Source of the DNA: Lama guanicoe
Taxonomy: Eukaryota
Assembly: GCA_013239625.1 (NCBI GenBank)
Contig: MU053594.1
Span: 1,678,127-1,742,126 of the forward strand
Length of the DNA: 64,000 bases
Direction of reading: 5' to 3'
Shown: in pieces, positions 1,306 through 33,456 of the stretch
How positions within the stretch are numbered: the stretch's first letter is position 1
Layout of the letters: each line of letters opens with the position of its first letter
Program-made: the position numbers and the translations under genes
The notes under the pieces: generated by a model
Told to the model about the DNA's origin: nothing
Seen by the model: only the letters and a program-made list of their open reading frames with translations
The model's database searches: none

Positions 1306-1739
1306 TGGAATCTACATCCATGACCAAGATCTCCACAACAAAGCAAAAGACAACCCCAGCTCCAAAACCAACCACAACCCGCAAACCAGCAGCCACACCC
1401 CGCAAAACAGCAGCAACACCCGGCAAACCAGCAGCCAGAACCCCCAAATCGAAATCCACACCCCGCAGACCGCCAGCCACAACCCCTAAACTGGCATCCA
1501 CAACCCGTACCACAGCCAGAACCCATACCACATCCACAAACTATACCAAACCCAAACCCCATACCATAGTCACAAACCATACCACATCCACCAACCATAG
1601 CAAACCCACACCCCGTACCACAGCCCGAACCTCAGCCCGAACCTCAGCCAATAGTTTGGCCAACACAGCCTTCCGCGGCCCCATCAGATACGCCATCCAG
1701 CTCCTGCTCGTCTTCCTCACCAGCAAACTCCTCTTCTAG
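1306..1739 (+). CDS. PLET1: PLET1-like paralogue A, terminal coding exon (Thr/Pro/Lys/Arg-rich stalk plus GPI-anchor signal); upstream exons lie outside the window
   Basis: Poly-T/cctag acceptor at 1301-1305; open frame to TAG at 1737-1739; C-terminus LANTAFRGPIRYAIQLLLVFLTSKLLF resembles the PLET1 hydrophobic tail; paralogous to exon 4 of copy B. Confidence 0.88.
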
Positions 1740-9063: not shown

Positions 9064-9247
9064 ATGGCAGTCCTTGGTTCCCCACTGCTGCCCCTGGTGC
9101 TGTCTCTGTGCCTCGGACTGCTGGTTCCTTCGGCCAAGTGTCAGTATCCTATCGGCAAATGCATAACACTGAGTAACATCATCGCTGCCACTGATGGGGG
9201 AGTCCAGGCCTTCCCAAAGAGCTATAAAAGCAACACAATGTACACAG
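9064..9247 (+). CDS. PLET1: PLET1 copy B exon 1 (signal peptide MAVLGSPLLPLVLSLCLGLLVPSA...)
   Basis: Strong Kozak accATGG; hydrophobic leader; donor G|gtgagt. Confidence 0.92.
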
Positions 9248-13624: not shown

Positions 13625-13823
13625 TAATAGTGCCTGTGACTGACAACACTGAAGCTGTGATCATCCGAGCAATGTACAACATGCACCCAGTAGGCTTCTG
13701 GAAAGATGTAGACAAGAATTGTACAAACAGTGTCATGTACGAACTGAAGAACCCACGCATGAAATGGTTCAAGACAAGATGGGTATCTCCTGGGGACATG
13801 GACCTATCCTCAGTCCAGCTACA
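13625..13823 (+). CDS. PLET1: PLET1 copy B exon 2
   Basis: ccag acceptor; VPVTDNTEAVIIRA...GFWKDVDKNC...RWVSP resembles PLET1; donor CA|gtaaga. Confidence 0.92.
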
Positions 13824-14825: not shown

Positions 14826-15560
14826 TGTTTACCAAGTCAAACTTGAATCCGCTTGCCCACTGAGCAGCAGACTCAATTTACTGACACCAGGTTGTGGTGA
14901 AGGAAAGTACAGCATTTATTGCAGGCACCAAGCAAGCAGAATGGGCAGCTCATGCTCAAAAGACATGAGCTCCCATCAGCTTTCTGGGCAGCTCTTATAA
15001 AGGCTACATTTGTGGTGAGGATGCAGGGGCCATGACTTTCTTCTGATTGGTTGGTGATGTTGTAACAGGATGATGTTTCACAAATTGTAAACATCAGTCT
15101 TCCGATCCCACCCAGTCCGGGGTCTGTGTGCTTATGCTCAGCATGTAGTCACTGTCCTCCACCTGGGTCTTACTTCCTGCAAAACAACTCAAAGATCTGT
15201 GTCACATTATTATCGATAACCCTCGAGGAGGAACCAGAGCTCTGTTTTATCATGGAACTATTGTTTCTTGACTACTTTGCCTTTGTTTCTGCACTCCTTC
15301 ATTTCCCTCATTAGTAACTGCTTGAGTCTGCTCTTTGGAACTCAGGGTAAGCTTAGGAGACTAACGCTTTTCTCTACAAACAAGAAATGGGGAGACACAG
15401 AGGGGCTTTTGTACCAGGGAGGGCCCCACAGGGTCCTGCTTGGATTCAGTTTCCCCTTTTCTTTGATGCTCCTCAATCCTGAGGGGAACAGGGGATAAGA
15501 AAGAGGATAACGTTCTAAGCAGAGAGTTTAATCATAAACTCGGCAGAGGAATTCACTTTT
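14826..15560 (-). mobile_element. ERV1-class 3' LTR (14826-15448) with adjoining polypurine tract and internal remnant
   Basis: Minus strand reads AGAAAAGGGGAAAC then TGAATCC..., ends in CA at 14826, and has an AATAAA near 14915. Confidence 0.7.
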
Positions 15561-17290
15561 AGGGGGACCTGGTTTCACCACCACATGAAGAATCATGTTT
15601 TTCAAACACATGCATTTTGGAAGTGGCTTGCTGGCAGAACGTGTGGTGATTGTGTAATAAAACTGGCTTCCTAGTGTTACACAAAATGGACACATTCAGA
15701 TTCCGCGCTGAGGCCACCTGAGGGCTCATGTTACATGCTAACAACAACAACAACAAACTTCCCTCCCAGCTAGGGATTTGTTATCAAATTCACTTTAGGA
15801 AGCAAAGGTTGAGAGATCCTTACACTTTGACTGCCGTTTTGTTCTGAAAGGGCAGGTCTCACCATCGGAGCCGTGTCCATTACGAGCAGCCACCAGGGGT
15901 CGAGGGACATTGGAGATAATGATGCAGTCAAGCCTCCCCACCCTCTGCTGCCACGCCCTGCGCCTGGTGGAACCTAGCTGGCTCTGAAGGAGGAACTGTT
16001 ATGCCCACAGACAGACGTGCAAGAGTGGAATCCAAAGGAAGCTGCTACAGTCCAGCCTCACAATGACAGCAGGCTCTTACTAGCCAGTCAGGACTCATGA
16101 GGGCAGTGACTTTCCTTTCATCTCACCTCCTTAAGGCCTCCACACTCCACGCAACAACAGATAAAAGACCACAGAGTGACAATCTGCAATGGAAACACAT
16201 TCCCACTGACAGGGCAGTCTCCAGACCCCCCCTCACTCTCACCACGATGATGCACTGGCTCCTCTGCTTCTTTACCGTGCACAACAAGGCTGACACCTGG
16301 AGGGGAGCAGCATACAGGATGGGAGAGCCCCTTCTGTGGGGTAGGGCACAAAAGGGCATATGAAGAGGTTCCTGCCCACAGAGCTTCACAGTGAGGTGTA
16401 GGGAGGCAAGGCCCATGGAGAAGTAAATACTCAGGTTAGACAGCACCTCCTCAGAAAGAATCCTCTAAACTCCCAGATCAACTCCCGGCTTCCTGTTTGC
16501 TCTCTCTCATAACTTCCACTGCTTCATCAGAGCGCGTATCACAATGGTGATCAGTTACTTAACTTGTTGGTCGATTATTTGTTTAAAATCTCCCTCTCTA
16601 AAGGGACTTTAAGGGCCATCAAGGAAAGAAGCATGCCAGTGTTCACCAGCGTCCCCTTAGCACCAAGCACAGTGACTGGCATGTCGTCCACTCACGAACT
16701 GTTAAATGAACAAGAGACTGAACGGGCCCACTGACAGAAGAGCAACACACCAAGCTGCACCGCTCGTTTAATGGCCATTAAGTACCTGTGACACTACGTG
16801 TCAGGCATTGTGGACAACAGAACCTGCCCTCAAGGAGCTGGTCCTCCAGTGCGAGGAGAGGCTGATGGCAAAGCAATGCAGCACAGGGGCATGTCTGTCT
16901 GATGGAGATCTATCTGGGTTCATGATGATAGGGAGAAATGACTTCCCAGAGGTTACTGATGAGTCTGTAGGCAGATGTTCCCTGGGCCGGATTATTACGA
17001 TCAGAAAGACTAACCCGAAGGAAGACCAGAGGTGTATACCAGCCTGTGGGGAGTTCAGGGTGCTGGCGTGGGTGGGGGTGGGGGATGGACATGGCCTTGT
17101 CTGGAGCAAGATCATGAAGGATCTTGGTCAAGACAATATAGAGCAGACCAGGACTTATGATCTGCTAATTGTGCTGTAGAGAATGTAGGCACAACAGCAA
17201 TTAAGGGCTGGGGTCTGCTGGCAAGGCAGCAACTGTGAAATGAACTTGTGAATTCCTCACCATTACCTCTCATTTATTTGCCCTCCACAG

Positions 17291-17352
17291 AACCTTCACT
17301 GTCGATTCGCAAAAAGTGGCTGCATTTTCTACCCAGGATCTGATGAGAAGAG
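17291..17352 (+). CDS. PLET1: PLET1 copy B exon 3 (QTFTVDSQKVAAFSTQDLMRR)
   Basis: ccctccacag acceptor; G|gtaagt donor; 62 nt keeps the frame; resembles the PLET1 QAFTV segment. Confidence 0.9.
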
Positions 17353-18125: not shown

Positions 18126-18166
<41 letters not shown>

Positions 18167-18188
18167 TGTGTGTGTGTGTGTGTGTGTG
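18126..18188. repeat. (GT)n microsatellite in PLET1 intron 3
   Basis: Direct reading. Confidence 0.95.
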
Positions 18189-19455
18189 GTGTTTAAATAC
18201 AAGCTTTAACCAAGAGTAAGAAACATTAGTCTTTCTCCATGACCAGATAATAGATCTTCCTCACGAGCCCCCAAACTCTGAAGTACATCTAGTGTGCTGC
18301 TCAATTTCCTGTCAGTCAAGCATTGCAAATGTGGTCAAAGGCTTATCGATTTTCAACAACAAATGTGAAAGTGATTATGCCTAATGAAACTATTATGTGA
18401 ACGCCTTAAGTGTTTCCTTGGTGGTTTCCCCTCTGTGAAAAGACAGACATTATTTTCTTTCTCCAGGACATTTTCAAAAGGAACACTGGTATAAATGGTA
18501 GGAAAGAAAAAAACAAAGTTTGTTTCTGGTCAGAACTCCTTAGCTCCATGCTAATAAAATCCAGATTTAAAAAGAGGAGACAGAGAAAAAGAAAGTGGCT
18601 GTGTTCAGACTTTTGGCTCAGGGGTGGCCTAGAGGAACACCTGCCCTGGGGAAATGTTCCACGAGATAAGATCCTGCCACAGAGCTAGAAGGCGCCCTGC
18701 AGGGGGACAGGGTGCACAGGCTGGAGCAAATCACTGCACATTTCCTGCCTTCTTCCTTATAGTCCCCTCTGTGGTTCACTCAGACCCTTGGAGGTGTCAT
18801 GGCCAAGCTCTAGTTTTCCAAGATCAGACAGCCCCCCAGGTTTGGCTTTCTCTGCTTCTCCGCCAGGCAACCTCAAAACGCTAACATGTGGTCAGATCCC
18901 TGTCTGTGAAAATGACCAGTCTCTCAGACACCACAAAAAAGAGATTCGCAGGTTGGACGGGGCCTCTTTCCCCTTCCTTTAAAGCAGAGGTGGCCGTCCT
19001 TGGGTCTGGATGCTGTCTATTTCTTACCACTTTTACATGCAACCTTTGAAATGAGCAGAGAAACCAAAGACCAAAAAAGAAAAAGCATTCAAGTGTACCA
19101 CTCTGGACCATGTTTGCACTGATTGATCCAATGTAATACTAAGAACATGAGGACATCTGAGGGCAGACTACCTACCTAACAACAAACTCAGTAGTCATGT
19201 AAATTCAGTGTAAGTTCCTTCTCCTGTAGGGCTGTGCAGAGCTTAAGGGTAGATTGTTTCTTATTTTTGGTTCCTTGACATCCTGTGCCCTCCTAGTTTC
19301 CCCGTCCTCTACACACTCTGAGCCCTTGAGAAGTGCTTACTGAGTTTTGCTCATGAACTCTGGCTCCAGCATCCTATCCGATTAGTCTCCTCTCTCCAGT
19401 GTGCACCTGCCACCCAAAAGAGGTTCTGATGACATTGTTTTTTCTTTTTCCCTAG

Positions 19456-20096
19456 TGGAAACTACATCCATGACCACGACCTCCACAACCAAGCCAGTCG
19501 CAACCCCAGCTCCAAAACCAGCCGAACCCTGCAAACCAGAAGCCGCAACCCGCAATCCGGCAGCCACTGTTCCCATGCCGGCAGAACCAATCCCCATACC
19601 ACCAGTGACATCCTCCATACGGGCATTCCTAATCCCACCCAGAAACCGCAAACCGGCAGCCACACCCCGCAAACCAGCATCCACACCCCGCAGACCCGCA
19701 GCCGCACCCCGGAAACTGGCAGCCACACCCCGCAAACCGGCAGCAACACCCCGCAAACCATCACCCACACCCCGCAAACCATCACCCACACCCCACAAAC
19801 TGGCAGCCACACCCCGCAAACCGGCAGCCACAATCCCACAACCAACAACCACACCTCGTACCACAGCCACAACCCACACCACATTCAAAGACCGTAGCAC
19901 ACCCAGAACTCACACCAGAGCCACTCCCCCTACCACATCCACAAAGCGTACCAAACCCTCACCCCGTACCACAGCCCGAACCTCAGCCCCAGCCCAAACC
20001 ACAGCCAATAGTTTGGCCAACACAGCCTTCCGCGGCCCCATCAGATACGCCATCCAGCTCCTGCTCGTCTTCCTCACCAGCAAACTCCTCTTCTAG
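19456..20096 (+). CDS. PLET1: PLET1 copy B exon 4 (cationic Thr/Pro-rich stalk plus GPI signal)
   Basis: cctag acceptor; open frame to TAG; C-terminal signal identical to copy A. Confidence 0.92.
19662..19829 (+). repeat. Coding 21-bp minisatellite, 8 units of the TPRKPAA-type heptad
   Basis: Unit acaccccgcaaaccggcagcc repeated with few changes; decayed units on both sides. Confidence 0.9.
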
Positions 20097-20629
20097 AAAG
20101 GACGCTACGGGAACACTTGCTTCTGCTGCCACTGCATCCTTCTATGTTCAGTTCCAAGCCAGGACTCTGACACACGTGAACAAAGCTTTACGTTCTCAGA
20201 CGTCCACCTCCACTCCCGCTCCTTCAGACCAAAACGGAGACCTGAGGGTCACTCGGTGAGGGGAACAGTCCACTCAGTGGTGTTCAACTGTGTGTCTCAG
20301 GACACAAATTAGGCTTTTTGTAACTACTTAGACCTAGATTTTGGCTCCTGGCTTAACATGTTCACAGCCAGTTACACAGCCAGTCCAAACTTTTATTTAG
20401 ATGCAACACCAGTAGCATCTGAAGGGCAAGAAAATAAGAATGTACCAGGTCTTGAGTAGTCAAGGATAGGGAAAGATCATGCTATAAAGGCATTATTTTC
20501 TGTGTCATACCAACTAAACTATACCTCAAACAAGAATAATGAATGTGTTAAATTCAAATATGTCTTTAATGAGTGATCAATTTAAAATATAGAAAATGTC
20601 ATCTAATTTTATTCATTTATGGGAGCATT

Positions 20630-20635
20630 AATAAA
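20630..20635 (+). terminator. Polyadenylation signal, PLET1 copy B
   Basis: AATAAA paralogous to 2273-2278. Confidence 0.65.
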
Positions 20636-20919
20636 ATCAATGGAATGGTGAGAGTGTGTATGTTTTCGAAGCCAGATATAAGGGTAACATTTTCTCAATT
20701 TTAATTTTTCTCGACTGCAAACTGGTCAGTTTTCCCCTAGTGGTAATCTCCACTAAGAAACATGGGTAAAATATTTATAATATTCATAATATAACATAAA
20801 ACCAAAACAAAACATGGTATTTCCAGTAATAAGTAACAAAGTTTTCTTTTAATAGCTATGCTAAATTCCAAGATGCCAACTTCAGTGACTGAATGCCAAC
20901 TTCCACCTGGCCTTTCTCA

Positions 20920-32119: not shown

Positions 32120-32670
32120 CTGCGTAACCGGGGCGAGCTAAGGCTCCGCGGCCGAGCCCCCTCCTCGGCAGGCACCCCCGCCCCGGCCGCACCCGGGCCC
32201 CGCCCCGCGGCTCGAAGGTCCCGCCCCCACCACTGTCACGTGGGCACAACCCACCTGTGGAGCCGATGGCTCGCGCTGAAGGAGACCAGGCGGGACACCC
32301 GCGCCCGGCGGCGAGGCCCCGAGCCCGCCGCGCTCATTGCTTCGCAGGCCGCGAGCCCAGTCAGCGCCTCCTCCATCCGCCCGCGGCTCCTCCTCGGCTG
32401 CGCAGTGCGGGCAGCGCCGGCCGGAAGCGCTCCCCGCTTCACTCTATGGCCGAGCTCCCTCTGCCGGCCGGAGGCCGTAACAGGCGTCCCTTCTACCGCA
32501 GTCTCTTCGGAGAGCAAGATCTCAGAGAGCTGTGCATGCCTCAGAGCGGCCAGGTAAGGTGGGTGGGGTCTTTTTATGTCCGCTAAACCTGAGGCCATGT
32601 CACGCGGTTAGGGTGAGCCTGGTTGGGCCTGCTTTGGGTCCGAGAGGAACCTCGTTGAGCCGCCTCTCCC
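32120..32670. promoter_or_regulatory. CpG island / PTS promoter
   Basis: High GC and CpG density; ETS-type CCGGAAG at 32421; GC boxes. Confidence 0.85.
32255..32337 (-). CDS. PTS: PTS exon 1
   Basis: MSAAGSGPRRRARVSRLVSFSASHRLH; donor AG|gtgggt. Confidence 0.95.
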
Positions 32671-32920
32671 TCTCTCTTCTAGAAAACCCTGGGTTACAAT
32701 AGAAACCTCCAGTAACTTCCCTGATTACTCCCGGGGCCCAGTCTACTTACAGCTTAAAGGGAGCAGAAATTTGAGGGCACGTGTAGGACCACGTGACTTT
32801 CACAGACGCTACCACCTTTGGACTGTCCACAATGAAATTCTCAAGCTGTTTTTAGCCACATGCATGCAAGGGCCCGTTTATCACTTTGTGTTGCCACAGG
32901 GTAAACACATGCACCCGTAA

Positions 32921-32988
32921 ACACACACACACACACGTTTCCAGTGCACCGTGTCGCCTCCTGCAATATTCTCCTACACCCCCCCACG

Positions 32989-33027
<39 letters not shown>

Positions 33028-33062
33028 CCAGTGCACCGTGTCGCCTCCTGCAATATTCTCCT
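32921..33062. repeat. Two-unit tandem duplication: (CA)n plus a 40-bp identical core
   Basis: cgtttccagtgcaccgtgtcgcctcctgcaatattctcct at 32936-32975 and 33023-33062. Confidence 0.9.
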
Positions 33063-33456
33063 CCCCCCACCCCGGGCTGTAAAAAAAGAACTTCGAATAA
33101 TTATAAACCAGAAATTTCTGAAATAGAGACTCTAAATCTAGTTCAGTCCTCTCACTTTAAAGAAAACACAGGCCCAGATAAGTGAATTTACCCAAGATCA
33201 CTTACAATATAAACAATGTTTCCCAGGCATTGACTGCATCAGAGATGAATACTCTAGTGTTTACACAAATACTTCATTTGTTCCTAAAACAGTTTAAACA
33301 ATCAAAATAAAGGGTAAAAAGTGGAAAGAATTTCTGAGAAATTGATTTACTTCTTTGCTTCAATAAAATACGTAATTGCATTTGCAGAGTTCTTGTTCTA
33401 TTTTGTTGAAGCTAATTCTGTATAAAGGTACTCACCAAATTCACTCTCGGTCATCC

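Follow-up and report, generated by a model that had tools for sequence, protein, structure and literature searches.

PLET1 as known from mouse, pig and camel combines a signal peptide, a reeler-like head, a 62-nt exon 3, a Thr/Pro stalk and a conserved GPI signal, with PTS as the neighbouring gene, and all of these features are shared by the locus described here. Mouse Plet1 is reported to be GPI-anchored, the GPI (long) isoform being by far the dominant one (PMC4848516), and the likeness of its head to reeler domains has already been recorded (PMC6492104). The mouse protein is also reported to be shed in the lung, where release by phospholipase C is indicated, in a paper that presents PLET1 as a protein without a known receptor (PMC10761876), and pig PLET1 is given as 210 amino acids long (PMC5187848). 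Closest in fold to the head is the reelin-N domain of F-spondin, which is alike at 17% identity and reportedly binds heparin (PMC3117680); this binding is shown for F-spondin and not for PLET1, and nothing in it bears directly on the stalk. On the side of the stalk, the repeats of mycobacterial HBHA are reported to bind a heparin 14-mer at about 50 μM (PMC3293801). They resemble the present array, by analogy only and with no homology claimed, in being disordered, short repeats of basic residues, Ala and Pro on a cell-surface protein, but they are Lys-only penta- and hexamers at a free C-terminus, whereas the array is internal, carries Arg-Lys and is potentially O-glycosylated. In the mucin-type VNTR stalks of MUC1, lubricin and GPIbα, a coding tandem repeat within one exon likewise sets the length of the stalk, although the camelid array is poor in Ser/Thr. 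Within the PLET1 family, the cetacean (TTTPTHKL)n and pangolin (TLTSTRRT)n stalks share with the camelid one an exon 4 tandem repeat that is basic, almost acid-free and variable in unit number, the whale octamer supplying one Lys and one His and the pangolin octamer an Arg pair. These octamers contain 42–56% Ser/Thr, with about 0.2–0.3 K/R per Ser/Thr, in contrast with 16% and 1.8 respectively for the camelid heptad block.

In the 64,000-nt stretch of Lama guanicoe DNA analysed in the present study (the window), PLET1 is present as tandem paralogs, an upstream copy A and a copy B, and the stalk of copy B reaches 182 amino acids, compared with about 30 deduced by subtraction for the pig, and holds a block in which K/R outnumber Ser/Thr. 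Copy B is a lineage-specific extreme of a known PLET1 architecture and not a new system. We found no description of a camelid PLET1 stalk in the literature searched, which left most subscription papers outside its coverage.

The four exons of copy B, all on the plus strand (9064..9247, 13625..13823, 17291..17352 and 19456..20096), have GT-AG ends and form a single open frame of 361 residues. The coding part of exon 1 (9064..9247) encodes the signal peptide and the start of the reeler-like domain, ends in a GT donor at which the frame closes, and matches Vicugna pacos XP_031531376.1 in 61 of 61 residues. Exon 2 (13625..13823), with AG and GT ends, encodes the core of the domain and shows no difference from P0003 and one from Camelus ferus P0001, compared with 14–17 from the other camel PLET1 type and a match of 33–41% with the PLET1 of other mammals. 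Over exons 1 and 2 together, none of 128 residues differs from XP_031531376.1, which establishes homology with PLET1; four of 128 differ from the C. ferus PLET1-like protein, and 28–32 of 128 from the head type of the other paralog, which has three sequons to the one of copy B. Exon 3 (17291..17352; 62 nt) encodes the last β-hairpin of the domain, with one peptide difference in Camelus P0014, P0031 and P0033, and sets the frame of the array. The coding part of exon 4 (19456..20096) follows a T-rich acceptor (14 T of 20) and comprises the 182-residue stalk and a 30-residue GPI-attachment signal (20004..20096), built of small residues, a spacer and a hydrophobic tail (mean hydropathy 2.0 over the last 15 residues), before a TAG at 20094–20096. 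This signal is identical in copies A and B and the 30-residue tail is conserved in the family alignment A1. An AATAAA polyadenylation signal lies at 20630..20635 (plus strand), with its copy A counterpart at 2273. Pfam returned no family for any of four exon peptides at E values up to 1. In a search with exon 2, the 4876-residue protein P0009 showed 32 stretches matching residues 30–64 of the exon 2 peptide (E 5e-6).

Structure was predicted for the full-length Bactrian camel paralog P0033 (22-sequence alignment), which stands in here for the protein of the window. The model has a head at about residues 32–150 with pLDDT mostly 80–95, a stalk with pLDDT below 50 and a C-terminal helix, and Foldseek placed the F-spondin reeler domain at ranks 1–8 for the head (E 6.5e-7, 17% identity). 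Exon 3 accounts for strands 124–133 and 137–147, the last two of the fold, and the prediction shows exons 1–3 of the camel paralog folding into one reeler-like β-sandwich. Exon 4, judged by its sequence, would form a disordered Pro/Thr/Ala rod that ends in a GPI signal, and copy B would be GPI-anchored by analogy with the mouse protein. An earlier sequence-only reading of this DNA had placed the array in a stalk encoded by PLET1 exon 4, and this is supported, as is the assignment of the exon to a GPI stalk.

The array itself consists of nine in-frame 21-bp units (19641..19829, plus strand) with the consensus TPRKPAA, each 0–3 bases off consensus; its 63 residues include 18 K/R, one His, no D/E, 10 Ser/Thr and 17 Pro. 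Although only two of the nine units encode TPRKPAA exactly, a K/R pair is present in eight (seven RK and one RR), the ninth having HK. Tandem Repeats Finder reported 19646–19832 with period 21, 8.9 copies and 84% matches, and the best 168-nt window gave 141 matches at lag 21, compared with at most 89 in 300 codon shuffles. The sequence-only reading had counted eight near-perfect units in a tract extending to 19870; eight is right if the first unit (RNRKPAA) is omitted, and otherwise there are nine, whereas 19830–19870 is decayed Thr-rich stalk. Its charge counts for exon 4 are exact, at 15 Lys plus 21 Arg, i.e. 36, against five D/E in the 212 residues of copy B, and 26 K/R against one D/E in the 143 residues of copy A, and the retention of CpGs that it saw in the units is real (13 per 189 bp, observed/expected 0.86, compared with 0.24 for the window). 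This ratio is also raised elsewhere, to 0.67 in the copy A stalk and 0.65 in the GPI-signal codons. On the upstream side, five decayed heptads (19524..19628, plus strand) differ from the consensus at 3–9 positions, have a K/R pair in none of the five and have gained three Glu, and on the downstream side lies a membrane-proximal Thr-rich mucin segment (19830..20003, plus strand) with 47% Ser/Thr and a weak 18-bp period. The stalk as a whole is mucin-like in composition, with 51% Ser, Thr and Pro, although Ser/Thr make up only 16% of the array.

Pieces from two DNA runs, X15 and X18, together cover exon 4 of copy B with 0–2 differences each, which argues that the array is not an assembly artefact; the two look independent but come from the same study, and one could be the source of the assembly. 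Inside the array their contigs split into pieces of 44–96 bp, and no row with an indel was found there. In X18, variant pieces with 1–2 differences have a depth of 21–25, compared with 6–7 for pieces of the reference type; as the contigs break within the array, these variant pieces are at most a hint of unit-number polymorphism. Because the short contigs overlap, we set aside summed read depth across the array as a guide to copy number.

Whether the polybasic peptide is made depends on the use of exons 3 and 4, and we consider it unlikely that an alternative exon end, skipping of exon 3 or a silent copy B would leave it rarely or never produced. The RefSeq models of alpaca and dromedary use an alternative terminal exon, located by tblastn with P0003 and P0002 at 15851..15977 (plus strand), which has an acceptor and a TAG and gives a protein of 169 residues with neither stalk nor GPI signal. 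This exon would yield a secreted form without the final hairpin that calls to mind the short isoform of the mouse. Other camelid PLET1 models end after exon 2. Copy-B exon 4 occurs in none of the database proteins found: a search with the C-terminal 42 residues returned two hits among three candidates, both of them camel proteins of copy-A type. If exon 3 is skipped, exon 4 is open over 19457–19894 (146 codons), and the array yields a neutral repeat with His and Gln, (TPQTGSH)n, with three K/R and no GPI signal; a different frame of exon 4 seems to be used in bear isoform X2 and in the models of Miniopterus, Manis pentadactyla and pika. Against this reading, the four exons have GT-AG ends and together keep a 361-residue frame open as far as the GPI signal typical of the family, and without exon 3 the fold would lack its last two strands. 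Three Camelus models (P0014, P0031 and P0033) have the identical junction of exons 3 and 4, their stalk being short and of copy-A type. The dominance of the GPI isoform in mouse (PMC4848516) points the same way, as do the type-B heads of alpaca and wild camel, which differ at only four of 128 residues and suggest a working gene. The sequence-only reading had named an array-skipping downstream acceptor as a possible refutation; by sequence none is present, the later AGs inside exon 4 having at most four T in 20, compared with 14 at 19454.

In the RNA run X1, pieces cover the array (7–8 differences per 60–70 bp) and the GPI-signal part, and also intron 3 at a depth of 77; the intron is covered as deeply as the exon, and neither a joint nor a loose end was seen at 19456 in the stretch examined, which excluded exon 3. 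We counted X1, whose coverage also has uninformative holes, neither as evidence of expression nor of splicing, and run X3, whose coverage is even across the intron, was treated as DNA. Further joins in X1 contigs, one between 15147–15175 and 18977 and the other between about 19040 and 20076, lie at short words common to both sides and lack GT-AG; they are probably library chimeras. Splicing of exon 3 to exon 4 in copy B would follow from the frame and splice sites described above. For camelid genomics the consequence is that the predicted membrane-anchored form lacks annotation: no protein in the databases searched contains this exon, and the alpaca model terminates in a different one.

We compared the charge of the stalk with that of 14 other PLET1 stalks, from camel, six whales, dingo, lion, pangolin, bat, squirrel and rat together with one Logan protein, a set that contains no pig, ruminant, horse, primate or mouse stalk and in which several whale and carnivore stalk starts were cut by hand. 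Proteins were excluded if they had no GPI tail or used another frame (P0001–3, P0006, P0007, P0010, P0025, P0040–42, P0049 and fragments), if they were near duplicates (P0011, P0014, P0030, P0031, P0038, P0046 and P0047) or if the stalk was mostly spliced out (P0020, P0026, P0028 and P0043). Twelve of the 14 are net basic with at most two D/E, and they use at least five different repeat units; the only neutral stalks are those of the two rodents. Net charge per residue is 0.154 in copy B, 0.195 in copy A, 0.185 in camel and 0.188 in pangolin, and stalk length across the set runs from 23 to 182 residues, with a difference of one heptad between camel models. The suggestion that a polybasic stalk is atypical is therefore not supported, since a net-basic, acid-poor stalk is the rule among the Laurasiatherian PLET1 proteins retrieved and the charge per residue of copy A exceeds that of copy B. 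The heptad, however, is not a shared, invariant artiodactyl feature, as whales have an octamer and pig PLET1 has only 210 residues (PMC5187848), which by subtraction would leave a stalk of about 30 residues, too short for the array. On sequence grounds, a basic, acid-poor repeat stalk appears to be a habit of the PLET1 family, with copy B as its camelid extreme.

What sets copy B apart is the relation of charge to potential O-glycosylation sites. In the best 63-residue window, net charge and number of Ser/Thr are +18 and 10 for copy B, +16 and 21 for copy A, +15 and 17 for camel and +14 and 34 for pangolin, so that net basic charge exceeds Ser/Thr sites in one of 16 stalks, that of copy B. With one sialic acid per Ser/Thr as an assumed occupancy, the copy-B stalk would carry −24 overall and the array block would still be positive; the block would stay cationic after O-glycosylation because K/R outnumber Ser/Thr there. 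We found no literature on flanking charge and O-glycosylation.

The explanation to which we give about an even chance is that the stalk of copy B serves as an elongated spacer beneath a reeler head anchored through GPI, its charge having been amplified from a founder unit and its binding to polyanions being weak and incidental. On this view the array forms the central part of the stalk that a PLET1 paralog, held by a GPI anchor, extends outside the cell. A 21-bp unit with one Arg-Lys pair, found in both paralogs and ancestral in camelids, would have gained copies in copy B through slippage or unequal exchange. This would have extended a stalk of 113 residues to one of 182 and presumably raised the head further through the glycocalyx. 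Most of the charge would be inherited: from the A/C-rich codons of PLET1 stalks, mutation reaches Lys or Arg roughly three times as easily as Asp or Glu, and amplification of one basic unit would multiply the charge of that unit. After O-glycosylation the Thr-rich ends of the stalk would probably be neutral or negative, whereas the 63-residue block would have too few Ser/Thr for neutralization by one sialic acid per site and probably confers, as a side effect, a weak electrostatic adhesion of low specificity to heparan sulphate or sialylated surfaces. Gene conversion would meanwhile keep the flanks of the paralogs alike while their stalks stay different.

This spacer explanation is supported by the net basic charge of 12 of the 14 other stalks and by the pattern of substitution. 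Changes among the nine units comprise 13 non-synonymous and six synonymous, as in the neutral expectation of about 0.7 non-synonymous. Single-step charge gains from the uncharged codons of the copy-B stalk are basic to acidic in a ratio of 2.9:1, and the stalk minus the array, with 15 K/R to five D/E, fits this ratio (p 0.59). The absence of the K/R pair from all five older units and the variation of stalk length from 23 to 182 residues support it further. Other data go against it. The CpG of the Arg codon is retained in eight of nine units and that of the Pro codon in three of nine (one-sided p 0.025, or 0.06 with the duplicated unit taken once, the units not being independent in this test). 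The three changes in RK codons of the array are silent or conservative (one silent, one K to R and one R to H), although the proportion of RK-codon sites changed (3/54, compared with 16/135 elsewhere in the array) is not significantly low (p 0.15). Pooled over six lineages, 62 K/R to three D/E exceeds the 2.9:1 skew (p 9e-6), a test that we do not trust, as non-independent repeat units inflate it and the camelid codon ratio may not fit Ala-poor stalks. In addition, A and B diverge only between the acceptor and the GPI signal, a pattern that selection acting on the mature stalk could produce, and the joint between exons 3 and 4 was not seen in run X1.

The suggestion of the sequence-only reading that the stalk may bind glycosaminoglycans or sialylated glycans is plausible. 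The main rival to the spacer, possible but distinctly less probable, is a cationic rod with few glycans that was selected in copy B for binding, by avidity and in concert with the reeler head, to heparan sulphate or sialylated mucins, for example at the contact between camelid trophoblast and uterus. Such a rod would account for the excess of net charge over Ser/Thr sites in the best window, found in copy B alone of the 16 stalks, for the retention of the Arg-codon CpG, and for the persistence of the array in a relative that is 4% diverged. Polyproline II rises 3.1 Å per residue, and in that conformation the RK pairs would recur every 21.7 Å. This is near the spacing of about 20 Å cited for heparin binding (PMC6153649). 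The heparin binding of F-spondin reelin-N, the closest fold to the head (PMC3117680), and of the Lys/Ala/Pro repeats of HBHA (PMC3293801) would also suit a rod of this kind, as would the distinctness of the copy-B head in its 28–32 residue differences and its single sequon. On the other hand, Cardin–Weintraub motifs (XBBXBX or XBBBXXBX) are absent within the units, with one reversed at the start of the array and one outside it, the ratio of non-synonymous to synonymous change among units is neutral, the conservation of RK is not significant, and the five older units have lost their charge. Across mammalian orders the PLET1 stalk has been rebuilt repeatedly from basic repeats, which points to polyanions as candidate partners and makes a cheap test possible.

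The RK pairs had also been proposed as dibasic sites for shedding of the head, and a role as protease sites now seems very improbable. Eight regularly spaced K/R pairs and the shedding of Plet1 in mouse lung (PMC10761876) speak for it. However, neither RxxR nor the furin-type RxKR/RxRR has a match in either stalk, and Pro follows seven of the eight array pairs. Lys-Pro bonds resist cleavage by trypsin-like proteases and convertases, although plasmin-like cleavage between R and K is conceivable. Release in mouse points instead to phospholipase C (PMC10761876), the rat stalk has only two K/R, and a single site would suffice. We regard as scarcely credible that the stalk is an antimicrobial or DNA-binding peptide resembling a histone H1 tail. 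The array does contain seven [ST]-P-x-[KR] motifs, the pattern of H1 tails and CDK sites, but the protein is extracellular, and the unit is nearly without hydrophobic residues for membrane insertion. Pfam assigned no family to the exon, and the best ESM Atlas score of 0.79 is within chance and uninformative.

Exon 4 of copy A (1306..1739, plus strand) encodes a stalk of 113 residues with six heptads (1374–1499), three N-glycan sequons and the same GPI signal, and 96 of the 113 stalk residues are identical with those of Camelus bactrianus P0033. A duplicated block at 18150..20889 (plus strand) matches 1–2532, the intron, GPI signal and 3′ untranslated region being 99.8–100% identical and the stalk 80–86%. 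In detail, A and B differ at two bases and one gap in 1262 of the intron, at none of 93 in the GPI signal and at one of 793 in the 3′ flank; for the stalk the figures are nine of 63 and 55 of 278. The divergent island (19461–20001, compared with 1311–1644) runs from six bases into exon 4 to the GPI signal, and the flanks are much closer to each other than to those of a camel-like relative. N-glycan sequons also differ, with three in the copy A stalk (1308–1646) and none in that of copy B (19458–20003). Gene conversion would homogenize the flanks and spare the stalk, either through selection or because conversion is blocked by a fast-changing repeat, and both would give this pattern. We entertain as a speculation, and a rather doubtful one, that selection keeps the heads and stalks of two or more camelid PLET1 paralogs distinct in the face of continuing conversion, and that part of the mucin stalk of copy B has become an unglycosylated rod of regularly spaced Arg-Lys pairs, with heparan sulphate of the uterus or matrix, or sialylated mucin, as its ligand. 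If true, the host genome would encode a GPI-anchored equivalent of the Lys/Ala/Pro adhesin repeats of bacteria, one that annotation has missed, and PLET1 would gain a candidate class of ligand.

In X15 and X18, copy-specific pieces have a depth of 15–21 and shared flanks 44–51, a ratio consistent with two or three collapsed copies, and in each of two Camelus species three PLET1 loci lie on a single contig. We rejected allelic mis-assembly as an explanation for A and B on account of the distinct 3′ breakpoint, the presence of the two stalk types together in a single run from a diverged relative, and these three loci per contig in two Camelus species. The camel PLET1 heads (P0001, P0002 and P0032–P0036) show three combinations of exons 1 and 2, i.e. 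both window-like, both of the other type, or a window-like exon 1 with an exon 2 of the other type, which suggests that exons have been shuffled individually among three or more clustered genes.

Run X3 differs from the window at up to 61 of 1364 intron positions (4.5%). One of its contigs encodes a stalk of the short kind; a second, with 37 differences and no gap, runs collinearly with copy B from 19438 to 19750 and continues into further heptads. X1 shares 14 listed intron changes (19028–19432) with X3 and has a Camelus-type codon at 20032. Because X3 carries both stalk types, both would predate the split from the camel-like lineage, and the camelid split is put at more than 11 million years (PMC13751797). 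The sequence-only reading took the CpGs as a sign of recent expansion, which is not sustained, since a collinear exon of copy B, containing TPRK-type units, is present in this relative at about 4% divergence. Nor does CpG retention serve as a measure of age: eight of the 13 array CpGs lie in the Arg codon, where the CpG is lost in one unit of nine, whereas that of the Pro codon has already decayed in six of nine.

At the far side of the locus, the first exon of PTS, a convergent neighbour, was found at 32260..32337 (minus strand; phmmer to 6-pyruvoyl tetrahydropterin synthase, E 1.1e-4). It lies within a GC-rich island, with a short duplicated block containing (CA)n near 32900–33100, and PTS adjoins PLET1 in human as well. 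The 3′ end of duplicate A is met exactly by an AT-rich sequence on the minus strand (2533 to about 6000), which is about 70% identical to other old repeats of the window and which we take to be L1-like.
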